NCBI GenBank assembly: GCA_030265395.1
Contig: JARFYF010000036.1
Location: 1,701,884-1,765,883, forward strand
Length of the DNA: 64,000 bases
Direction: 5' to 3'
Source: Rhina ancylostomus
Taxonomy: Eukaryota
A program made the position numbers and the translations under genes. Each line of letters opens with the position of its first letter. Position 1 is the stretch's first letter. This document shows, one piece after another, positions 5,116 through 63,100 of this stretch. The notes under the pieces were generated by a model that ran no database searches, had not been told where the DNA came from, and saw only the letters and a program-made list of their open reading frames with translations.

Positions 5116-5356
5116 AATACCAATATTTCAGACTGCAGATTTCTTTCATTGTTTTCCTCATGATCCCACCTTTGGCCCACGTCCAGAATTTCAGTTTGCA
5201 CTCAGACCTACATAGAAACATTAGAGATGGCAGGAATGGGTCCTCGCGCATGCTCCACCATTCAACAGGATTGTGGGTGATCCTTTAGTGCAACTTTCCT
5301 GCACTAACCTCACATTCCTTGGTTCCTATACCTGAAAATCAGTTGACGTCTGTCTT

Positions 5357-5757
5357 TTCTATTTCAATCTTTTTATTAGTTTTCAAATTAATACAGATTA
5401 ATACAGATATAATCATAAAGAATAAAAAATATATTCTAGGCCCCACGGTCTCTTAGTAAATGAATATAATACAAAAAATATCAAAAAGGGAAAGAAAAAG
5501 ATTTATTGTATGAAAAAAACAAATTGGAAAAAATTATAAGTAATAAGATGAAACAAACTAAAAAAAATTCCAAACGAAAAACTGGACTGACATTTTTCGA
5601 TGAACAAAGAGCATTATTACGTCGTCAACTCCTCTCCTCTGAGTTCAAAGGTTATTGAAAAGGGATCTATATCATGTGAAAATATTGAATGAATGGACTC
5701 CAAACTTCCTCAAATTTAAGCGAAGAATCAACAGTTCACCTCTAATTTTCTACCGAT
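5357..5757 (-). mobile_element. Probable L1/Tx1-type LINE 3' end
   Basis: Minus-strand AATAAA/A-rich tail (plus strand TTTCAATCTTTTTATTAG) with an AT-rich 3'UTR and ORF-end-like sequence; family call from general appearance only. Confidence 0.45.
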
Positions 5758-9223: not shown

Positions 9224-11867
9224 GTATCTGCCAGAGAACTGAAATGGCTCAAGCCAGTCCGAGTGACGTCCTATGTGACTGTGACAAAGGAAACAACCCT
9301 TTCCCATCCTTCTCAAGCTACTTGCAGCAGTTGACCGTGACATTACCCTCAGAGATGAACGTAACTGAAGTTTCTCACCAGTATGTTTGTATCACTAACA
9401 CTGCCGATATTACCCAACTCCACTGATTGCATTGGCCATTTCCTTACAGGTGCCATAGTAGCTCATTTTGATTGCTGATTGCCCTCCGATGCCTTCCAAC
9501 TGTATTCTGAGCTGGGTAGGAGTGCACATCTGTGTCCTTTACCTGTCCAGTAGTAACCAATCGTCTCTCTTGCTACCACTCCCTAGCCAAGTGTCAGTCC
9601 CTAACCTCCTATTTCTCATCTACGTGGTACTTCTCAATGACACCATCGAAAACAGTAATGGTGTTCCCACATTCACACGGGGCACCTGACCTTATCACCA
9701 CTGCTGCCACTCAACTGTCACACTACTTTCCCACCATTCGATTTCCTCCAAATGTTCTGACCACAAATAAACCACCATCACCTTTAATATTTTCCAAACT
9801 GTTAGCCAGAAGACTAAATGTTCAAAAAAATATTTACACCTTCAGTCTCATTCCCTCCCATCCACCGTCATCATAACCTGCAAGTTATTTTCTTTCAATT
9901 GTCCATTTGAAAACCTTGATTGATTTGGCATTCACGGGATCCCAATCATTACTAGCAGTGTAAATGTCTCTCTTTCACTCACCTCCCCCGTGTCTCTTTT
10001 GCCCAAATGGTACAAGTTTGCCACACACCCTCTTCTCCCTCCCGGGTACTGGAACCCTCCCACTAACCAGCCCTGATCTTCTACCCCTCCAGCAGGTGAC
10101 TGCTAAGCCTCTTGTTCCAAGGAGACAATCCCAGCTTCTCCGCCCTAACCTTGTAGCTGGAATCTTGCCCCCCTGGAATTATTCTGATAAATGCAGTCTG
10201 TGCCCTGTCCAGTTCCTTCACATCTTCCCTTAAAGCCCAGGTAATGCTTCACACAGGTTCAACAGACTAAGATTAAACAATTTTAACCCACTGGAGTACT
10301 AGGTGGAGCATTAATACACAAGTTGATGTAGCTAACNNNNNNNNNNNNNNNNNNNNNNNNNNNNNNNNNNNNNNNNNNNNNNNNNNNNNNNNNNNNNNNN
10401 NNNNNNNNNNNNNNNNNNNNNNNNNNNNNNNNNCTGAGTGGGGTAACCCTCCCTGCCCATCATCATTCCTCCTCCGAGGACATTCCCATCAGCATCACCC
10501 CTCAGACAGGGCCCCTCAAGTGAGCCTGGGGCTGTAGATAATTTTTCCAAGTTTGGGAATACAGGGAGAAAGGGCAAATAGCATGTGATTAGGAATGAAT
10601 CCAAGTCTCCGGAGCTGTGAGGCAGCAGTATTGCCTGCTACATCATCATGTCACCCAAGCTGGGGATGGAGGCTGCTCTGGGTGGTAATCTGTGAAGCCC
10701 GAGTGGTTCAGTCTTTGCCCTGCTTGCTCACCTTCGCTCACCTGTGGCAGGGTTTTCAGATAAGCAGGATGTCCACTCCAATGTTTGTCTTGCTGGTCTT
10801 AGCATTAGATCAACTGAGTCTGCCCACTACTTGCAGTGTTTGTCAGAAGACCAGAACTTTAAGTGTTCCCACCCCAGCAGAGAATCACACAAGGAAGCTT
10901 GTGCATTTGTGTCTCATGAGACTTCCAAAAGTTATTTACACCCAGGAATTGTACACCTACACACATCATGCCTTGCTCATGCATAGACCCCTCCTCTGGC
11001 CCATGACAGTAGGTTGGGTGCAATGGGCAACACCAATTTAGTGCTTTTATATGCAAGTGAACCAGCAAGCCTTTTATCTCCGATGGCATGAGCAGTGGGA
11101 CAAATTCACACGGTAGTGTAAAATGACAAAAATCTCAATTAAAATGAACATCAGCTATTAAAGTCTCCATAAACACAGTACAAAAGACATCAAAAAAGTT
11201 GATACCTTCAGTTTGTTGTTTTTATCATATCCATTTAAGGCTTGACCTGCAATTTTAAAATCAGCCAAGATAAAGTGGAGTTACTATCTTTGCATAAATA
11301 ATTTAGACACAGTGTAATGCAAGTACAGTATTGGGTAACTGAAAACAAAAAAAGGTAATTAAGCTCAACTGCAATGAGATGACAACATGCACTTTGAAGC
11401 ATTAAGAATGGTTATATTGGGCACTCCTGCATCGTTTGTGGTTGATGTGAGCATGCTTCCAGATTTCTGTTTCATTCTCTACCACCACCACCTTGCCAAG
11501 TTACAGCTCCAAAAGTAGCAGAAAGTCCTCAGCCGATATTCATCCACAAGCAACTCCAGGGAAAGGTTGTGTGACTCGGTGAGGAGTGCTTATTGGTGTC
11601 AACTCAAAGACCATCTTCACATCAAACATGAGTCCTACCAGCGCATCACTCATTAATGATGTGGTCATAGTTTCAGAAGATCAACTGCTAGATAATAATC
11701 ACCTGGTTCAGACAGCAAATTTCTTTGATGGAAACCTAGAAGGCATTGGCTAAAGAACTGTCCCACCTGCAGATCAGTCTTAAAACAGATACTGTGCTGT
11801 AAGTAAAAGTAATCCAAAGGAATTTTGCTCAGACAAAAGAAAGGACATTTTAAGAAGCAACTGTAAC

Positions 11868-11873
11868 TTTATT
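11868..11873 (-). promoter_or_regulatory. Candidate polyadenylation signal of the SOWAH-like gene
   Basis: AATAAA on - strand followed by a U/GU-rich tract (TGTCCTTTCTTTTGTCT); other AATAAA hexamers lie between here and the stop, so the choice is uncertain. Confidence 0.35.
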
Positions 11874-14800
11874 TGTTTGGCAATGTAAATAACACAATTT
11901 ATAGGTATAACAATTAGCTGTAGACAATTCTGTAAATTAGTTATTGAGTTTGAAAAGTAATTTGAGCTGCACCAACATCAAATCCAGATGAACAAAAGAG
12001 AAAAGCACAGCCTTGTGAGGCTCGTTGAACATCCACGTTGGTCTCTGCTTGGAATCAACAATACAGTACCAGTTGAGATAGACAAACTGCAGTAACTGTA
12101 GACTTAATAATGCAGCCATTACCTTTACAACCAGCTCCTCAAAAGCTTCATTTAATGAACAGTTTAATTTACTAGGTTTCCATTAACAAACATGATCTAA
12201 ATAACATTTTGTGTAGCTATGTTTTAATGTATATTGCTTGAGAAGATGGAAGCACATGCTATATAAGCTTTCAAAGAGAAATGGCCAGACAGTTGAAAAA
12301 GGGGGCAATGGGAATAAAAAGAGAATGGGACTAATTGAATGATCATTTNNNNNNNNNNCGCACACACACACACAGCGAGTTGATGGGCTTCCTCTGCATC
12401 AGTAGCGCTGGTTTCAACCAATTTACCACAGAATGATGCCTGACCATCATTTCCCAGTATTCACCACTGAATTTTGTGAGAGTTTCAATCCCCACTTAAC
12501 ATCTATCTGCAAAATAGTTCTGGTATTCAATTATATCCAGAATGACAGTTGTGTTCCTATACTGGAATTCCTAGTTTAGAATTACACAGATTGGGAAATT
12601 ATACACCACGTTTAAAAGATGTGCTGTCAATGAGGCAAATTTTCATCCTGTGGTGAAGCAGACTGCTTGTTCACTGTGGACTTCCTATTTGCATTTATTA
12701 AGGAAACATGAAACCCAATATATTCTCCTATGTATATACTACTTTGCTTTTAATACTGATTTGATGACATATTCATTGCATGATAATTTAAACTGCAATT
12801 GAAATAGTACATCAGTAACCAATTTCGCACAGAAACTGTAATTGAGAAATAGGCATTTGCCAAAATGGTCTGCTTTTCCATGTTAGCAACATAAGCAGTA
12901 GTATTAATGCCGCGTGCTTCAACTATTCTCATATCCCTTCATCTGCCTTTATTGTAACTATATTTAAATCTATTCTGAATCATTGATCTGCTTGCTCCCT
13001 GCTGGAATCACAATTCTGGCGGAGAACATGCAGTCTTATAACCTTTGTGTAAAAAAAGTTTGGTATCACATTTCATTTGACAGCTGTGCCCTCGTCATTT
13101 TACGTTTCAAACCTTTGGAAACAGCTTCTAATCATTCTGTCCCATCATTCATACTTTGAAACACTTATCAAAATATTCTGGGTCTAATAAGTGACCCTAA
13201 TTTTTCCACGTTGCCTTCCTTTTGTATTTTCTCATACTGACAGCATTTTAGTGAAACTGCACAATACTCTCACTATTGCTTCGACATCCTTATTCTGGGG
13301 AATTCAAAACTGCAGTAACTTCTTGTAATTTCCATCACAGGTACTCCAAAAAAAACATAATTACATAATTCATATTTATCAAGGCTTTACTCACTCAAGG
13401 CGCTGGTGTTGGTACTTTGTGAACACAAAATTTCTGACCTTTCACATCACACAATTTACCCAGTAAAGGCATAATATGCTTCAAACTCTGGAAAAAATCA
13501 TCATGCAAGCTGCTTAATCTACACCAGGTCCTCCAAAGGATTTAGGAGACTGATAATAGAGTACATATTTCAGGTCTTTTGAGACCATCTAGAATTACAT
13601 AAATCTCTGCTATTAACATTAAAGAAAACAGTGCTAAGTAAAGAGTTTAGAGCCTGCAGTTGACCAGCTTTACTTGGCACAAATTGTTATATCCTGTCTC
13701 CTTCAGAGTGCTGTCAGATGTGCATAACAATATGCATGATTTTACTTCATTTTTTTTTACATTTCCCACCTGCTGTTAATGCTATTTATTTTATTTTTAA
13801 TTNNNCAAGGTAGTTTTCAGTTTGGCTAATCCAACCACCCATTGGTCACTTGAGGGTTTCAAAGCACAATGACATTGAATTAAGATGTCACTTTGACTTG
13901 GGAGGTTGGTTGTTGGCCAAGAAATTGCTTGGTTTTTTTTAAACCTGATAGTTGTTTAGTTCACACAACTCATTTGAAAATGATAAAGCAGAAACACTTT
14001 TTTTTTACATCACCCTCCCATGTAAAAAGATCATATCAGCATACAAGGCACTGTTTCAGGAATACATTCATCAAATACAAAAATCAGGCATATTTTGAAT
14101 TAACTCAGAACTAATTCATCTTTACATGTTCTGTAACTGCGTGGAAGAAGAAAACATGTTGGCAGAATCAGGGCATTATTTTGTTGTGCTGAACTTGCCA
14201 TTTAGTGGTTTATGAATCAGTTATACGTTAATATTAATCCAGATGCCACATATTGTTCAATTTTCCTATTAACCCATTAATTCTCAGAAGTTGCAACTCA
14301 CAGTCATAAGTTGCAAAATACTTCAGTCATTTGGCACTTCATTTATGTGGGTATTCTCCATAAAAGATCCATAGGTTGGCAGTTTATTTGAACTTCAGAC
14401 CAACCCAGCTGAGCATTTCTGCACACTACTGCCTATTAATAACAAAATAATTAATTAAAAAGCAGCACTAAACACCAACATTGTTCTGGTCAGCATGGGT
14501 CAGTATAATACAATGGAGTTACAAGGTAAGGTTTTAAGAGGTATTTTAATTTTCAGTACATTGCACTAAATGTATGGAACAATACTCGCTCCAGACCCTC
14601 TCTCTGTAGTTGATATTGTGGAATTGTAAACCTGTAATAATACTGGAATCTTACTACTGTGGCAGTGAGTCATAGCTAACAAATAAATAATCGATATAGT
14701 TGAAGTCTTCAGACATAACTAAATTCTGCACAAATAAAGGAAAATAGATAGTTGAAGCAAGATAGAAGAGGAGTTATGCATTAAGGTTTCTTCCTCATGA

Positions 14801-16294
14801 TTCTGAAGCTGCAGTTATACAATCCGTGATGTCATACCACTGAAAAATAGTTTCATGTAGAATTATTGCAATTTGATTTTAGAACCTTATCTGAAGAAAA
14901 GCCAAGTAATAAGATAGCCTGGCGTACTCTACAGATGGTGCAGATTCATGCAACTTCAATAAGGCTAATCATACTGGAATCAGCACAAATCCAGTCTTCC
15001 CACTGTAAATCATAGGAAACCAGCAGCTACAAGTACTCATAGCCTTAGCATGACTGTAGAAGCAATGGTGTGAAGCAGGTACATCATAGGTGATATTTAT
15101 TGCTGCACAAGAGAAATGAGTTAAGATCATATGCCGCTGCAGGGTTGCTCAGGAAAACTATGGACCTCCTAGAATGGGACAGTTTCTGTCAACCTCCTGG
15201 CAAGTTTATTTTATGGTTAAGTGATGCAAAAGCTTAAACACATTACACTCAATTAAATTGGTCTCTTGCAAATTAAACCCTCTTATCGTACTGTTGTCAT
15301 TTAGGGACATTTACCCTGATCTGGATGACTACAACTTTCTACAGAGAGAGCTACAAATGTTTACTTCTTGAGTGCAACAAAATGAATGCATTATTTTTTC
15401 TTCCAGATTTTACTTCAGATAATTTCACTTCCCAGAGTCCCTGATTTTACTCAAGATATTTTCCCATGCATGCAAGCATCTTTCTCATACATCCCCAAAT
15501 AACCATGCTCATGTGGCACAAATGTAATAAACACTGTGTTTGCATTGGAAATCTGCACCATGAAGCCAAATCACAATACTCAAAGAAAGGCATTACCATA
15601 TGCTCATAGCTGAGCCACTGGGAGCCTTGTGCATAGCAGATGGAAGGATGGAGTCAATACCTATCCCTCTTACAACAGCCACACCAACATGAGTTGGGAT
15701 GTTACTGCTTTAATTTATGATGATGTTCATTACATGGATGATTGTCTTTATGGGCACTGAAACCCACTGTTTACCCAAAATGAGATCCAAACACATACAT
15801 CTCAAATGCAAGAGGAAACATTAAAACCAGACAGAGTGCAAGTACAACCTCCCAGTGATTTTCATACAAGTGGCCCTTTGAAACCAAGAGCAGGGTTTTC
15901 CATTCCAAGCCTTGCAATGGGAGGCATGGGAAATAGAGAACCAAGTGTAAACCCACCATACAAAATGGTTTAAAATAATAAGTAAGGAAGATTCCCCTGG
16001 TTTATGTGTAGGAACATAATACAGTGGGAAAATAGATGCCTAAAACACAACTGCACTTTAACTTGCTGTTAAGTGTTGATAGTAGTGTAATGCACAATAT
16101 ATTTGCAGCTTGTTTAAAATAAAAGGATGTAACAGATCTCCTAACTTATTCAANNNNNNNNNNNNNNNNNNNNNNNNNNNNNNNNNNNNNNNNNNNNNNN
16201 NNNNNNNNNNNNNNNNNNNNNNNNNNNNNNNNNNNNNNNNNNNNNNNNNNNNNTCTCCTAACTTATTCAAATCATGATTTCTTGCTCAAGTGTC

Positions 16295-16479
16295 CTATCT
16301 GGAGAACTTGCGAACAGCTTTGTATGACGTCGGTATAGACAGGAATATCGAGCCATCTTTGTCATCTGTTGTCAGGTTCTCTACTGAGCCCCAATTCTTT
16401 TTACTGCTTCCATAACTCTTTGGCAGGAAGAGTTCGGCAAGCTTCCGGTTCCGTCGCTCTCCCCGAGACTGCTGGAATT
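16295..16479 (-). CDS. SOWAH-family ankyrin-repeat gene, terminal coding exon
   Basis: TCTTTCTTGTGTTTTAG acceptor; phase 1 matches preceding exon; (K)FQQSRGERRNRKLAELFLPKSYGSSKKNWGSVENLTTDDKDGSIFLSIPTSYKAVRKFSR then TAG at 16295-16297. Confidence 0.85.
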
Positions 16480-19641: not shown

Positions 19642-19737
19642 TTGAAGAGACATTAGACTGATCTGTAGGGTCATCATTGTCTTTTAGATAGTGGGATGCA
19701 AACCGTCCACTATAGTCCCTTACATTTGTTTTTGCAC
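19642..19737 (-). CDS. SOWAH-family ankyrin-repeat gene, coding exon (end of ankyrin region)
   Basis: CAG|96 nt|GTAAGC, phase 1-1; GAKTNVRDYSGRFASHYLKDNDDPTDQSNVSS contains the SOWAH RDYSG...YL motif. Confidence 0.92.
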
Positions 19738-21619: not shown

Positions 21620-21692
21620 CATAATTATGAACTAGAAGATCCATGATGTCCAAGTGGGAATGCAGAGCTGCTATGTGCAAAGGTGTGTAACC
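21620..21692 (-). CDS. SOWAH-family gene, ankyrin repeat exon (GYTPLH)
   Basis: TGTTTCCTCAG|73 nt|GTGAGA, phase 0-1; GYTPLHIAALHSHLDIMDLLVHNY. Confidence 0.95.
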
Positions 21693-22736: not shown

Positions 22737-22739
22737 ACC
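22737..22739 (-). CDS. Single-codon microexon (GGT, Gly) of the SOWAH-family gene
   Basis: - strand TGTCATCTGTTTCTACTCCAG|GGT|GTGAGT; good pyrimidine tract and consensus donor; supplies the G of the HG-GYTPLH motif. Confidence 0.8.
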
Positions 22740-24573
22740 CTGGAGTAGAAACAGATGACAAGACAATCACCAAAAGCAGGGAAGAAAAAAAATTAAGTGT
22801 TTATTCAAAGATTGAATTTATAACAATACTTTTCCCCCTCCCACATTTCTTTTCCCCATCAGAATAATTCCTACTAAGGTGACGATCCTCACCTTCACTC
22901 AAATTCCTCAATCTTTCTTAATGACTAAATAATATTGACAGGAGATGGATGGAGAAGTAGTACACATGCTTTAATCTAAACAACTGGTCGGAGTGATTTT
23001 AACAGGAGGACACCAATTTAAAATCAATGATGAAAAATGTGTCCATATTGTCAATCTTTGCCACTTATAAAAAGGGCCGGATCTCTCTGTGGCTAAATAT
23101 GATGGGTCTAAACAAAACCATCAGCATTCAGCTGTTCAAACTGCAGCAAGTCATGGATCTGCATGCATTGCTGCCAAATGCGCAAGTCCCAAACTTACTG
23201 ACTGATTTGATGTCACAATAGACTATATAGCTCTGCCACTGGGAGTCCAGCGGAGGAGTTCACACTAGGTGGGGTTCCTCAGCATTACGTTCCTCAGTGA
23301 ACGTTCCATCTTGACCCCTGCATCAGGGTGACCCTGTTGCAGAATCCCAACCCCAATTTTTAAAAAAAATTTCATTTTAGTTTTTTTTATTGTTTCTAGA
23401 TGATTTGAACTTGTTAATTTTTAAAACATTTTTTGTTACAAGTCATCAAAAGCATCACAATTATCTTGCAGCTATTAAAGTCAACATATCTGGGTGCAAA
23501 GCTATATTGGTTGTGAAAGGTTTCATGGAGTTTTTGGGGCAAGTCAGACTCACTTTATTGCAGGAAGCCCTGCGCCCAAGCAGGCCCTGCACTGGAATGG
23601 TGGACGTTGAGGACCAAAATTACCCTTCTTCATCTGACCAGATTATGGTGAGGGAGCCCGTGGTTAAAGAAAAGTCTATTAATTCTTCAAGAAATGAATG
23701 AGAATATTACCAGAAGAGAAATATTAAAAGTGACTTGCCATAACCGGGAAGTTGCAAACTGTAGTGCTGGTATTGTAACACTGTATGATTTTACAAGATG
23801 TTTCTTCTTATATTTTAATTGTCTTTTTAAAATGTGGAATTGTGAGATATCACTTTTGACTTAAAGTGAAACAAACAGTGCTCAAGTACAATACAGCTTT
23901 ACATTAATTTTCATTTAAGAATAACGAAATGATGATTCAAGGTTGGGTTTGACCACTGATTTAATAAAAAGATCAAAACTATATTTCCATAATTGTTAAA
24001 TTCCTAGTTTGGTGAGTAAGTAATATCCTGTGTGTAAACGATATTCAGTACAACAACCACTGCCAGGACTAAAACTATGGTAGGAACTAAGCATTACAGA
24101 ATCTGTGGTTGAGTGCTACAGTGACCTTGTTTGCGAGGAACCACAAACATAACAAGGTTAATCACTTCATTCCATGAAGAAGTCATGCTAATGCAAACAG
24201 CAGGTAAGCAAGGCTCCTCATTCAACACTGCCAAAAAGGTGTTTGTCACGGCTTGCAAGGATGGAAGAATGAGGTTCATATGAATATGGATGGACCACAT
24301 CAGCAAAGCCATGGCTAACAAGGAGCTGATGCTTTTAAGGTGGGGAACGACAAAAAAACTGGCAGAGGAAACTGGCAAGAAAAATAAGAAAATATGCCTT
24401 TCAAACACACAAGTCAAGTTAAACTGATTTAAATGTGGAATTAACTGAACTATGCAAAGTTGCACTCAAATGTCTAGTGGTCATTTATTTGCCTTTTAAC
24501 TGAATCCTCTTAAATTTGGTTTCACTTAACAGGACATAATTGCTCAAAACAACATTAAACAACTTCAACTTAC

Positions 24574-24576
24574 ATG
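24574..24576 (-). CDS. Single-codon microexon (CAT, His) of the SOWAH-family gene
   Basis: - strand CTGCTTTCTGCCGTCTGATGGATAAACAAAG|CAT|GTAAGT; supplies the H of the HG-GYTPLH motif. Confidence 0.75.
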
Positions 24577-27500
24577 CTTTGTTTATCCATCAGACGGCAG
24601 AAAGCAGTGAAAGAGGAAACAAAAAATTATTCACTTCAAGTTCACTAAAAATTATATAGCATATTGAAGTAACAAAAGAGGTTTGAATATCCCATGTCAA
24701 AGATTAGATCTCTATGTTACACTTGTTCAATATGCAACATGCTGTTCAATCTGGGTTAGCTGTTAACACCCCCAGGAACGTGGCATTGGTTCAACTAATT
24801 AACCAACCTCCTTCAGTACACCACTTGTAACTGAGAATACTACGCCACTTGAATTTTCTATTATGAAACATGCAAGATAGCTATAAAACAAAAGCCAGGC
24901 TTTTAACTAGGCAGTAAATAATATGAGGAAATCAGGATACTTGCCACCAGAATAAACTGATAGCTAATAACACTCTAATATTCAAGCCTTTAGTCTATCA
25001 TTCCATTTGGAAACCTTTTTCCATATTATATCTTAAATAAAGTGAGCATATAGCTGGCCTTTCATTTCCAATTCCTTTAATCTCACAAAATATCCAATAC
25101 ATTATATAGTCTTTATTATGTTTCAATCACATTNNNNNNNNNNNNNNNNNNNNNNNNNNNNNNNNNNNNNNNNNNNNNNNNNNNNNNNNNNNNNNNNNNN
25201 NNNNNNNNNNNNNNNNNNNNNNNNNNNNNNNNNNNNNNNNNNNNNNNNNNNNNNNNNNNNNNNNNNNNNNNNNNNNNNNNNNNNNNNNNNNNNNNNNNNN
25301 NNNNNNNNNNNNNNNNNNNNNNNNNNNNNNNNNNNNNNNNNNNNNNNNNNNNNNNNNNNNNNNNNNNNNNNNNNNNNNNNNNNNNNNNNNNNNNNNNNNN
25401 NNNNNNNNNNNNNNNNNNNNNNNNNNNNNNNNNNNNNNNNNNNNNNNNNNNNNNNNNNNNNNNNNNNNNNNNNNNNNNNNNNNNNNNNNNNNNNNNNNNN
25501 NNNNNNNNNNNNNNNNNNNNNNNNNGTGATAGGCAGGTGCGGGGGAGGAGGGGAGAGCAGATCCACCGAGGGATGGGTCAAAGGTAAGGAGAGGAAAAAA
25601 AGGCTAGGAAAGGGAAGAGAAGCATGATGGGGGAGGGGGGTGGGGATTACCTAAAGTGGAGCTCTGCACCGTGGAACAATGCCATAAACCATTGTTTCTT
25701 AAAAAAAAGAACATGAACCCGTACATTCACTTTTAGATCATCTATCTTCTATTCCTTGGAACATTTTAACCAGCAATACATCAGTTGCTAAGTTTTTGTA
25801 CAAGCACACTGGAACAATGAGACACAACAAATAGAACTTTCAACATTCAGTGCCACAACCCATGCATCATTATCATGTACAACATGGTGGTTTGGTACAA
25901 TGTCTGTGGAAGTGTGTGCTAATTTTAATGCTAACTAAATTAAGGAGTTTTTCTATCATTTTGTTACTGGTGATTATTCTATAGTGGTGTATGTTACTAT
26001 ATGTTTTAAAATGAAATTTCATAATTTATCACATAGGCTTATCCTGGCTTTAATTCCAATTCTTTTCTTTTACTCAACCACTTTCCACACCTGCCTAATT
26101 ACCCAAGTATGAATTCTTTGCCTTGTCCATTCTCGTCCTCCAGCTGCCTGTCACATGCACTGTTCTCCAATACCCAAAGGACCTGTATGACAAGCTACCT
26201 ACCCAATAATGACCTCTATAATTAGCTTTGTACATTAGTTAACCTTCTTCCACTTCCATTGCTGCCTTTATGCTCCTGTGTCAAGTCTATACCCGACTGT
26301 CTGCAAATTGGTTCATGCTTGTGTATTCCACAAGTGACACAACTTTTCCCAGTTAATGTGTTTGTGCTTCAGAACATGTGGTATTCATTTTAATCATTTA
26401 CATAAGTGTGTAATTATATATAATGTAAATAATGTCATGTAAGGCATATATTGTAATGCTGTTTTACTGAAACAGGTTAAGTGGGATTGTAGTTTAAAAT
26501 ATATTTCAAATTACAATAAGGACACCAGTGTAAGTAAAGATGTGATTTTATATAATACATAATAAACTGGTTTACAGCCTTATGAAACCAGGCTCAGTGA
26601 CTCCGATCCATCATATTAGCACCAAAGTTCACAAGCTTTAAAGTTGGGTATTTTCTCATATTAAGTGTACGAGTTATTTATGGGAGTTCAATATACTTTT
26701 TGTACTTTGTTGAAGTTCAATAACCATAATCCTCTCCACTTCAAGTTCAAAGCCTAGCTTGACTTTGGGCATATTGAAGTATTTATCATGTGTCTTTCAA
26801 CTTGCATTTATATTCACTTGATACACAGGGACTGAGTACCCAAGTGCTGTTGTGGAGACTTTACCATTGCTTAAATTGGGATTGTGTGAGCGAGTGATGA
26901 GATTACCAAACAGGCACTTATAACGAGAGTTCAATTTTCTTTGATTCAGATTTCCTCTCTCCAGTTTTGTTTTTGATGGCTCCTATATGAATAGAAGCCA
27001 GAAATTTGTGGCCACAGCATAATTCGAGCAGAGCCTAGAGTGTTACTGAGACGTTTCACTTCTTGGCTTTATTTTCCATCTTGTGAAGGAGGAATTGTAT
27101 TAGAAAAGATGTGCCGACTCCAAAAAAGTGGAGAGTGTACTGCAAATAACAGCATGATTTTATTCAAGTATAATCATAATATTTCCACTTTTGCCATTTC
27201 AGACTCAATAATTCTCCCTTTCACTGTAATCTTTTTTTAATAAGACTGTGTTCAAAAACATTAGCTACCCTCCAGTCGTTCATCCAATTGGCCGTCATCA
27301 ACCTGGGCACTGTGAGAAGGGTAAAAACTTACCCAAAAGAGAATTACAAGCCTGATCACACCAGTTCACATCCAAGACATGCACACTCTCAGTGAAGATT
27401 AGGAGCATAAACTCTGTTCAATTGTCCTTATCCTCAAGCCAAAAACAACAGATAATTGATGAATCAGCTGGAGCTAGCTGATCACGTACTGAAGATGAAA

Positions 27501-29897: not shown

Positions 29898-29984
29898 AGC
29901 TCTGAGATTAATATCCACTCCTGCATTTATCAACATTCGTGCCATGTTTTCTTTGCCGTGTTTGGCTGCCCAGTGTAAAGCAGT
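29898..29984 (-). CDS. SOWAH-family gene, ankyrin repeat exon (TALHWAAKHG)
   Basis: TTTTTCTTCTTCCAG|87 nt|GTGAGT, phase 0-0; TALHWAAKHGKENMARMLINAGVDINLRA. Confidence 0.96.
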
Positions 29985-36341: not shown

Positions 36342-36344
36342 GAA
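36342..36344 (-). CDS. Single-codon microexon (TTC, Phe) of the SOWAH-family gene
   Basis: - strand GATTGTTCCTCGCCGTAG|TTC|GTAAGT; supplies the F of DFTS-GF-TALHW. Confidence 0.8.
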
Positions 36345-40288: not shown

Positions 40289-40291
40289 CCC
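40289..40291 (-). CDS. Single-codon microexon (GGG, Gly) of the SOWAH-family gene
   Basis: - strand CACTAAC-TTTGAAATGATCTGTGTGATGATAG|GGG|GTAAGT; consensus branch point 27 nt upstream; supplies the G of DFTS-GF-TALHW. Confidence 0.78.
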
Positions 40292-41272: not shown

Positions 41273-41284
41273 AGATGTGAAGTC
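41273..41284 (-). CDS. 12-nt microexon (DFTS) of the SOWAH-family gene
   Basis: - strand AATTCTGAAG|GACTTCACATCT|GTAAGT, phase 0-0; matches the SOWAH K-DF(I/M/T)S motif. Confidence 0.9.
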
Positions 41285-42230: not shown

Positions 42231-42332
42231 CTTTTTCATTGCCAGAGATGGATCCTGCTTGAGAAGGTCGCACAAAGCAGTTAAATGTCCAATGGCAGCA
42301 CACTTCAGCCACTCCTTCTCTAAAGGATCCAA
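42231..42332 (-). CDS. SOWAH-family gene, exon preceding the ankyrin repeats
   Basis: TTACTTTTCTTAAAG|102 nt|GTAAAC, phase 0-0; LDPLEKEWLKCAAIGHLTALCDLLKQDPSLAMKK, the SOWAH L(D/E)PLExEW...LLxxDPxLA motif. Confidence 0.95.
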
Positions 42333-54654: not shown

Positions 54655-54717
54655 AGCAACAGAGGGCGATCCCATACTTCCACTGCCATCCTCAAATCCA
54701 TTTTGTTCCAAGTCATC
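54655..54717 (-). CDS. SOWAH-family gene, coding exon
   Basis: TGTTCTATTTCAG|63 nt|GTAAGT, phase 0-0; DDLEQNGFEDGSGSMGSPSVA joins to give SVA-LDPLE, as in SOWAH proteins. Confidence 0.85.
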
Positions 54718-60236: not shown

Positions 60237-61157
60237 CATATAGAACATAGAACAATACAGGCCCTTCAGCCCACCATGTTGTGCTGTCTATCAAACCACA
60301 CCTAACACTATCTAACCCCTTCCTCCCACATATCCCTCCATATGCCTATCCAACAATCTCTTGAACCTGTCCAATGTATTCCATGCACCAACCACTCTCT
60401 GGGTGAAAAACCTCCCTCTGACACCTCCCCTGAACTTCCCACCCTTAACCTTAAAGCCATGCCCTTATCTTGAGCATTGGTGCCCTGGGAAAGAGGCACT
60501 GGCTGTCTACTCTATCTATTCCTCTCAATATTTTATGCACCTCTATCATGTCTCCCCTCATCCTCCTCCTCTCCAATGAGTAAAGCCCTAGCACCTTAAG
60601 CCTCTCCTCATATTNNNNNNNNNNNNNNNNNNNNNNNNNNNNNNNNNNNNNNNNNNNNNNNNNNNNNNNNNNNNNNNNNNNNNNNNNNNNNNNNNNNNNN
60701 NNNNNNNNNNNNNNTAATGCGGCGACCAGAACTGAACACAGTACTCTAAGTGTGGTCTAACTAGAGTTTTGTAAAGCTGCATCATCACTTCACGGCTCTT
60801 AAACTCAATCCCACGACTTATGAAAGCTAGCATCCCACAGGACTTCTTAGCTGCCCTATCCACCTGTGAGGCAACTTTCAGTGAACTGTGAATATGAACC
60901 CCCTTTGCTCTTCTACACTGCCAAGTACCTTGCCATTTACCTTGTACTCTGCCCTGGAGTTGTCTGCCCAGTGCTGCATCCTATCAATGTCCCTCTGTAA
61001 GCTTCGACAGCCCTCCACACTATTCACAACACCACCGATCTTAGTGTCATCCACAAACTTGCTAACAGAGCCTTCTACCCTCTCATCTAAGTCATCTATA
61101 AATATACCAAAAAGTAGAGGTCCCAGAACCAATCCCTGCGGGACACCACTAGTCACA
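60237..61157 (-). mobile_element. CR1 LINE, 5'-truncated, with reverse transcriptase remnant
   Basis: [24 protein letters not shown]...[11 protein letters not shown] and GMLAFISRGIEFKSREVMMQLYKTLVRPHLEYCVQFWSPH; (CATAGAA)n tail at about 60237-60253. Confidence 0.92.
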
Positions 61158-62950
61158 CATTTGGGTAGTGCAGTGATGTGGGCAGCAGGATTTGGAGATG
61201 AGACACAAAGGAGGAAAGAATGTGTGTATACATCCAACAAGACTAGGTCCATGTGCCACCCCCTCCATACCTGTACAGATTCACTATCTGGGTTCACATA
61301 TGGAGCCAGGCCATTTGGGCACAATCTAGGAGGGAAGGATGCACTTGAAAAACTGCACCCCAATAAGGACTAATGACTTCACCTCAGGAAGGGATATACA
61401 CGGGCTTTACACAACAATTTCAGATTTTGAAAGTTGTGGAATAATATTATGCAGTAGACTATTGACTGTAACAGCACTGGTGGTGTTAAGCTCATAGGCT
61501 AGTTTGAGAATTAGGAAACACATTAGAAAAACTACCACAGGTAACTATGAATGAGAATGACAAATTCACATTTTCACTGCAACAAGCCATAACTCAGCAT
61601 TATCTTCTTTTAACAACCTGGGACCTGTTCAAGTAATAAGTACAGCTATAATTCAGGAAATCCAGAGGCTCTCCGTACCCCACCCCCATCACTCCATTTC
61701 TCACAGAGCATAGGGAACCTATGCTAATTACAAAAACGACCAGATGGTAGAGATTGGAAGACTTTTATGGTGAGGACCGAATAATTAACATTTATAAATA
61801 AAATTAGTTGCCCTATTAGTCTTGCAGACGAGAAAGATAGCTAAGCTGTTCCATACAGTAGTATCCACAATAGTGTAACAAAGGTAAAACAATCTGATTG
61901 CAATTAGCTTTGAAACTATGTTGTAATAAATGGCAATTTCCATGTCAGTTTTATCAGTCAGAACTGACTTTGCTTCAATGTTATAATTCTGACCCGCAGT
62001 CAAGCAGAACTTGGCTTTGTAAGAAATGGTGGTCAGGTCTGAAATTATTCTGGGCTACATAAACAAACCTCTGCCAAAATGCTAAATCCTGAAGCAATTA
62101 CCATTCCTTCTAATTCACAGCAATTTTATACAATTTCATTTAATGTTTGACTATTACAGATTCTATACCAAATTGAAGGCTTTCCATGATCCAGCATTTG
62201 AAATGTGTATCCACTGATCCTTACCAAAAAAAACAGCATCACTATACAATTTGTCAATTCAGACAGATTGTTTTCACCCTCTCAAAAGCCACTCCAATTT
62301 AAAACTTCTTCTAGTACCTTCCCAAAACACTAATATTCTCTGTGACGATAATGAANNNNNNNNNNNNNNNNNNNNNNNNNNNNNNNNNNNNNNNNNNNNN
62401 NNNNNNNNNNNNNNNNNNNNNNNNNNNNNNNNNNNNNNNNNNNNNNNNNNNNNNNNNNNNNNNNNNNNNNNNNNNNNNNNNNNNNNNNNNNNNNNNNNNN
62501 NNNNNNNNNNNNNNNNNNNNNNNNNNNNNNNNNAGGATCAACAGAATGTTCCTTTGTACATGACACTGCCTTCAACATTGCAACACCTTTCTTTTACTGC
62601 TCATCTTTTCACTCCCAAATCAGTAGCCATTCTTTGAATCATGTAGCATAATGTCCAAGAATATACAATGTATACATTTGACAAGGTTCTCAAATTATAT
62701 TTTAATTTACTATTTACTTATTTCTTAACCTTTTAATGACAATTCTTACTTCTAGTAATTCAGGTATAGTCTTTCCTCAAAACAGCATCAGCATTTTCTG
62801 GGCAAGTTGAAGTTCAAATTATCGAATAAGATTCTATTAAATTTTAAATCTGCCTTCACATTTTGGTGTTGACTTTCGTAACCCCTCAGCTTGCTTTTAT
62901 TTTTCTTAATTTCCCCAAAAGATTGTAGGGGGACAGATTTATGAGAGTAC

Positions 62951-63100
62951 CTTGAACACAGATTCAAATTCTTCCTGCTGAGCTTCTTCCACCTTTATTT
63001 CAATATTCACTGGATTTCCTGCATTGTTTTCAGAAGCAACATCAGACTTTTCATCCTGCTTTTCTTCAGATGCTTCACTGTAGCGAAGTCCAGGATTTCC
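62951..63100 (-). CDS. Probable upstream coding exon of the SOWAH-family gene (acidic, low-complexity region)
   Basis: TTAAATTCTAG|150 nt|GTACTC, open only in phase 0; GNPGLRYSEASEEKQDEKSDVASENNAGNPVNIEIKVEEAQQEEFESVFK; donor is weak and homology is not verified. Confidence 0.55.

Follow-up and report, generated by a model that had tools for sequence, protein, structure and literature searches.

Are exons of a single codon included in every transcript of a gene, or do they serve as a switch? The question is raised by a Sowah gene on the minus strand of the window (the whole 64-kb stretch of Rhina ancylostomus DNA that was analysed), in which a first-pass annotation had placed two 3-nt exons, one for His and one for Gly, ahead of the exon encoding GYTPLH. 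How the spliceosome handles exons that are too short to accommodate its complexes has usually been studied in regulated neural microexons, and a vertebrate gene whose four one-codon exons seem to be part of every transcript offers a contrasting, testable case.

A Sowah gene with four predicted single-codon exons

When the exons in Table 1 are joined, they give an open frame that reads ...LAMKK|DFTS|G|F|TALHW...NLRA|H|G|GYTPLH... across GT-AG introns. Five of the exons are small (12, 3, 3, 3 and 3 nt) and four of these hold one codon each; the preceding ankyrin loop, DFTSGF, is divided among the 12-nt exon and the first two 3-nt exons. The gene of this cartilaginous fish matches its orthologues from catshark, white shark, basking shark, skates and elephant shark exon by exon, with 112/117 identities between the window exons and orthologue P0007. 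Earlier exons lie beyond the window, at about 1767500–1787700 of contig G000:C36, where the N-terminal exons of P0007 match 1767500–1787662; P0007 itself matches PF25877 and ankyrin. The protein thus combines the ankyrin region and the N-terminal SOWAH winged-helix domain of the Sowah family. In the tree it groups with skate, white shark and chimaera (support 100/99), with a skate-cluster protein as closest neighbour, and falls inside a vertebrate multi-exon clade (91/92) that stands apart from the retrocopies. A 13-residue insert after ...VKQED is present in the shark isoforms P0004, P0008 and P0009 and absent from P0007 and P0010, which suggests an alternative exon of the winged-helix domain, outside the window.

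About 45 kb beyond the Sowah stop codon, the same strand encodes a TALE homeobox (G000:C36:1672878-1672997), and its PKIWSLAE motif resembles the Irx proteins of supplement 1 of PMC2674049. This Irx-type match beside Sowah (L032) is single, and clusters of three hits sit on contigs C17 and C1. The EHLKNPY...LAIVTKM signature of the homeobox presumably marks it as Irx7-like. Searches of the genome, which give a lower bound, found no second intron-containing Sowah paralogue. The window gene fits the ancestral, intron-containing, Irx-linked Sowah that is set apart from intronless retrocopies in the relevant parts of PMC5803294 and PMC2674049. One of its introns holds decayed reverse-transcriptase-like fragments, presumably of a LINE, with an FVDDTK-type stretch (window 60450–61370).

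Table 1. Exons and related features of the Sowah gene in the window, in order of transcription
Feature	Position	Strand	Remarks
150-nt exon, GNPG...ESVFK	62951..63100	-	
63-nt exon, DDLEQ...SPSVA	54655..54717	-	
102-nt exon, LDPLEKEW...LAMKK	42231..42332	-	
12-nt exon, DFTS	41273..41284	-	predicted; in preceding loop
3-nt exon GGG (Gly), first pair	40289..40291	-	predicted; AG-free zone 109 nt
3-nt exon TTC (Phe), first pair	36342..36344	-	predicted; AG-free zone 103 nt
87-nt exon, TALHWAAKHG...DINLRA	29898..29984	-	ankyrin helices; phase 0 on both sides
3-nt exon CAT (His)	24574..24576	-	predicted; AAG acceptor, GTAAGT donor
GT-AG intron between His and Gly exons	22740..24573	-	1834 nt
Look-alike CAG|TCA|GTAAGT (Ser)	23199..23201	-	between His and Gly exons; perfect donor
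3-nt exon GGT (Gly)	22737..22739	-	predicted; CAG acceptor, GTGAGT donor, pyrimidine-rich
73-nt exon, GYTPLH...HNY	21620..21692	-	next ankyrin repeat; begins GGT
96-nt exon, AKTNVRDYSG...NVSS	19642..19737	-	
Last coding exon, FQQSRG...RKFSR, stop	16295..16479	-	

Splice sites of the His and Gly exons

The exon 5' of the pair ends AGA GCT|GTGAGT at 29898 (...DINLRA) and the exon 3' of it starts CAG|GGT TAC ACA CCT at 21692 (GYTPLH), both in phase 0. At the corresponding spot shark, skate and chimaera orthologues read R-A-H-G-G-Y-T-P-L-H, so two codons are absent between the flanking exons. Two triplets on the minus strand, aaacaaag[CAT]gtaagt and ctactccag[GGT]gtgagt, are flanked by AG and GT, keep the frame and supply the residues that the orthologues demand. 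The sites first proposed, AAG|CAT|GTAAGT and CAG|GGT|GTGAGT at a distance of 1834 nt, proved exactly right in triplets, flanks and spacing, and the restoration of RA-H-G-GYTPLH by two 3-nt exons is borne out by the phase-0 flanks and the orthologue residues. The exon model is thus confirmed at the level of DNA, with both exons as predictions. A 6-nt exon of the form AG-CAYGGN-GT/GC was not found in the sequenced part of the intron, and the alternative splits 1+5, 2+4, 4+2, 5+1 and 6 yielded no complete pair with good sites. The same intron contains an assembly gap of 392 N (25134–25525), which is spanned by none of the contigs from two DNA runs and whose right edge is a very high-copy repeat.

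The pattern AG-NNN-GTRAGT occurs five times on the minus strand of the window and not once on the plus strand, and four of the five minus-strand sites encode residues required by the orthologues, in the correct order (G, F, H, G). When the donor was relaxed to GTRAG, 1/3000 dinucleotide shuffles of the 8.2-kb intron held a His site with a Gly site after it, and a Gly site followed by a Phe site was equally rare in shuffles of the preceding intron (1/3000). The look-alike TCA triplet has an AG-free zone of 19 nt and a poor pyrimidine tract, and three residues at the His-Gly spot were seen in 0/135 tallied proteins, a tally that includes the best 120 of 1255 hits. The TCA site is therefore likely to be unused, given its short AG-free zone, its poor tract and the lack of an orthologue residue to match it.

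Upstream of the five small exons, in the 12-, 3-, 3-, 3-, 3-nt order, the AG-free zones measure 54, 109, 103, 55 and 87 nt, compared with 18–40 nt for six of seven ordinary exons and 66 nt for the remaining one; AG-to-AG gaps of at least 54 nt make up 3.3% of the 2639 in the gene span. All five small exons have GTRAGT donors. At the His exon the AAG acceptor is weak and rich in purines, the pyrimidine tract is set back about 15–50 nt from it and UGC occurs at −30 and −23; the Gly exon has a pyrimidine-rich CAG acceptor and UGC at −39. UGC also lies within 100 nt of ordinary exons.

A contig from a related organism (B), aligned over 23904–24970 and thus covering the His exon and not the Gly exon, differs by 27 substitutions, 26 of them listed. 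The stretch 24500–24750 with the His exon contains none of the listed substitutions (P about 0.006, post hoc), although two 1-nt indels are present. This conservation is weak evidence because a similar low-substitution stretch, partly unlisted, extends over the TCA look-alike (P about 0.03), and enhancers in Sowah introns may be another source of it. The stretch around the TCA site, with few listed differences, is possibly a conserved non-coding element.

Position of the two residues in the ankyrin repeat

The distance from T(ALH) to T(PLH) is 33 residues, the ankyrin period, only when both codons are present, and the repeat then aligns with those of ankyrin-1 without gaps. In long ankyrin proteins the spacing between repeats is 33 residues in 500/841 cases, 34 in 212, 32 in 10 and 31 in 1, a count from a profile search of 50% representatives that was swamped by many-repeat ankyrin proteins and was used for spacing alone. 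An AlphaFold model (mean pLDDT 63, about 75 over residues 311–320) puts His315-Gly316 in the loop between helices 297–305 and 320–326. The residues had been assigned to the tip of a β-hairpin. Their place in an inter-repeat loop holds, by the AlphaFold model and the ankyrin-1 alignment; the hairpin tip rests on knowledge of the ankyrin consensus, since DSSP assigned no strand to the loop. By alignment, His and Gly occupy two variable positions that precede the conserved hairpin Gly. Variable hairpin positions of ankyrin repeats contact partners. Contact at such positions is loosely backed by the relevant part of PMC8229355.

Inclusion of the His and Gly exons

We tallied the residues at this spot in 151 stored proteins, from which 16 without one of the flanking motifs (non-Sowah proteins and shortened models) were dropped. 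The tally is biased to full forms because it includes the best 120 of 1255 hits, ranked against a query with full inclusion, and Logan contigs drop rare variants. Within these bounds, 21/21 Logan-assembled proteins carry both HG and DFTSGF, and the 114 non-Logan proteins have HG in 66 cases, H only in 19, G only in 3, neither in 13 and other fillings in the rest (VS 7, QG 2, HE 2, DG 1, YA 1). VS would be GTGAGT read into the intron, which indicates that annotation errs at this junction. The first-pass expectation that aligners hide these exons, the GGT exon above all, agrees with the excess of His-only over Gly-only models (19 versus 3) in the same set with its best 120 of 1255 hits.

In white shark, thorny skate, swan, goose and painted turtle, RefSeq sets include isoforms that carry just the His, just the Gly or neither residue. 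In the swan and goose cluster the sole Logan member has HG and 6/6 RefSeq models lack one or both residues. The skipping isoforms may be alignment artefacts or may represent real minor skipping. If the exons were real and their alternative splicing meaningful (for example neural and SRRM3/4-dependent), loops of zero, one or two residues would change the partners of the protein. These RefSeq sets speak for such a switch, as do the set-back tract, weak acceptor and nearby UGC of the His exon and the presence of seven other 3-nt fly microexons on the alternative list of PMC8042270. Against it stand the uniformly full Logan proteins (21/21, again with the best 120 of 1255 hits), the full retrocopies described below, the rarity of repeats shortened to 31 or 32 residues and the seven V-S models, read as above, which show annotation error at the junction. 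Table S5 of PMC8042270 places all four fly sowah microexons among the constitutive ones, and the one sowah row in the fly eMIC table S2 of PMC8797185 is a separate eMIC-sensitive exon of 46 nt. We consider a meaningful switch unlikely. The suggestion that skipping retunes partner choice is not supported, nor is the neural regulation that it implied.

The reading that we favour, and regard as probable, is that the predicted His and Gly exons of the Irx-linked Sowah gene are included in nearly every transcript and complete the inter-repeat loop. Counting against constitutive use are the RefSeq combinations, the 48/114 non-Logan proteins without HG in this tally with its best 120 of 1255 hits, and the fact that what is listed as constitutive in fly is, for this loop, one 6-nt exon rather than a 3+3 pair. 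Given the same 48/114, apparent isoform diversity may be an artefact, and Sowah models in databases are often wrong at this spot.

Multi-exon-type Sowah models were also seen in turtles, waterfowl, a lizard and caecilians (P0039, P0052, P0053, P0073, P0080, P0123, P0146, P0331). Several of the tetrapod models have microexon-dependent variants, and the two that were tested group with the multi-exon clade. According to the passage concerned in PMC5803294, the parental Sowah gene was lost in tetrapods.

Intronless copies and a distant animal with the same split

The genome also holds four Sowah copies without introns, on contigs other than that of the window gene (C74, C52, C7 and C112; L004–L007). 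They keep two or three residues at the loop spot (HG, SG, NC and GGG), and one of them reads NSKSHGGYTPLH. Such retrocopies would have recorded the fully spliced form. Compared with the multi-exon protein, each carries a short insertion ahead of the loop, and the four may stem from one event.

A metagenome scan, from which 80 of 213 confirmed loci were kept, gave two loci among those 80, L075 and L072, that hold a Sowah gene with a predicted 3+3 split; they count as one observation because they are 98–99% identical to each other. In L075 the exon ends DAKS|GTGAGT, at a codon boundary identical to RA| of the Rhina gene, and is followed by AG|AAT|GTAAGT, AG|GGG|GTGAGT and CAG|GGT ATG ACT CCA CTA CAT. 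The predicted product, K-S-N-G-G-M-T-P-L-H, has the 33-residue spacing, with Asn-Gly as in fly. The 1.5-kb intron of L075 contains just two AG-NNN-GTRAG sites, preceded by 90 and 126 nt free of AG, and any codon followed by Gly arose in 4/5000 shuffles of it. Long AG-free zones thus also occur at exons that seem constitutive here, L075 included, and not just at neural microexons. The first loop of L075 is free of introns and the second pair is kept (5198–5404).

In the tree L075 sits on a long branch outside the jawed-vertebrate multi-exon clade (91/92), and its distance to vertebrate Sowahs is about the same as that to invertebrate ones, with 30–45 identities over about 80–95 positions. Its matches in the Atlas were generic ankyrin clusters. 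Its repeat-rich introns may hint at a sponge. Downstream of its Sowah gene lies a long tandem repeat array (11200–15395). The loop is uninterrupted in 12/12 other invertebrate-like contigs that were checked, some of which may be transcripts. In five loci (L067, L090, L097, L101 and L112) both intron sets are missing, and an intron follows directly on WAAKHG. A search for long proteins returned few invertebrate Sowahs.

The match of L075 at the same intron positions suggests that the 3+3 split is ancestral, and the simplest history would be an old split that was fused or erased in several lines. The split is likely to be older than jawed vertebrates, with the fly pair fused into one 6-nt exon by intron loss. 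Taken further, as a possibility that we put forward tentatively, a constitutive one-codon pair would have survived since the earliest animals, with L075 a non-bilaterian and the 6-nt exon of fly a later fusion. Alternatively, the exons would be constitutive and the 3+3 form would have arisen from a 6-nt exon in the vertebrate or chordate line, L075 being a divergent chordate, a convergent case or a product of chance. The 6-nt exon listed for fly in PMC8042270 and the long branch and loose placement of L075 would agree with this origin, but L075 falls outside the jawed-vertebrate clade and is about equidistant to the two groups of Sowahs, and independent gain at an identical codon boundary would be unlikely; we regard such an origin as quite improbable. 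That a single 6-nt His-Gly exon hides in the unread gap at 25134–25525 and the triplets are chance look-alikes is very improbable: fly does have a single 6-nt AACGGG at this place in the tables of PMC8042270, but the shuffles (1/3000), the long AG-free zones at both triplets, the lack of listed substitutions around the His triplet in organism B (P about 0.006, post hoc) and the same split in L075 all argue against it, and the His-only and Gly-only models of sharks, bony fish and tetrapods require separable exons.

Recognition and persistence of one-codon exons

Three exonic bases cannot hold enhancers, so recognition would have to come from the introns. Each 3-nt exon would be marked by a GTRAGT donor that fits the consensus and by a long pyrimidine-rich run without AG, and by virtue of that run the first AG after the branch point would be the correct acceptor. 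The exons would persist because their residues are needed for a normal ankyrin repeat, and Irx enhancers within the Sowah introns, of the kind described for fly in the relevant part of PMC12311624, may be a reason why these introns are kept. A 3+3 layout common to a very distant animal provides a marker for intron loss. If the pair does date from the earliest animals, exact splicing of 3-nt exons would predate the eMIC/SRRM4 programme of neurons and rely on intronic signals alone, and Sowah would lend itself to testing how small an exon can be and why introns of this kind persist.

Comparison with known systems

Small Sowah exons are already known in fly, where they are listed as constitutive and the second loop has a 6-nt exon. 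Table S4 of PMC8042270 gives the FlyBase sowah microexons ME119, ME3, ME2 and ME19 as 12, 3 (GGC), 3 (TAT) and 6 nt (AACGGG), in that order. Drosophila sowah thus shares with the Rhina gene its family, the two ankyrin loops, the 12-3-3 chain in the first loop and a small exon in the matching position ahead of GYTPLH; it differs in the second loop, where one 6-nt exon encodes Asn-Gly in place of 3+3 nt separated by the 1834-nt intron. Tiny conserved Sowah exons are reportedly noted by Maeso in 2012. The main text of open papers yielded nothing on Sowah microexons in vertebrates, on the 3+3 form or on its counterpart in L075; earlier descriptions may exist in supplements or subscription papers. 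In the 2009 alignment of supplement 5 of PMC2674049, 11/12 models, all but Nematostella, have gaps at both loop spots.

As in the Irx-Sowah genomic regulatory block treated in parts of PMC5803294, PMC12311624, PMC3342872 and PMC2674049, the Rhina genome has a multi-exon Sowah beside an Iroquois gene and intronless copies elsewhere; unlike here, microexons go unmentioned in the portions of the first three that describe the block.

Neural SRRM3/4 (eMIC) microexons resemble the Rhina exons in their 3n length, their position in a surface loop of an interaction domain and a lengthened region between branch point and acceptor, which section 20 of PMC12871342 describes for neural microexons; the weak acceptor of the His exon with its UGC is a further likeness to that section. 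The eMIC exons are regulated, whereas the evidence from Rhina Sowah points to constitutive use, and the eMIC targets of fly overlap poorly with those of mammals, whereas the Sowah layout seems common to distant animals. Single 3-nt exons are known from mouse Ncam and Drosophila troponin T (cited in PMC8042270) and from homothorax, as micro-Ex8 (PMC7392893), in the parts of those papers concerned. Troponin T and homothorax have single one-codon exons that are described as alternatively spliced, in contrast to Rhina Sowah with its two tandem pairs flanking one 87-nt exon.
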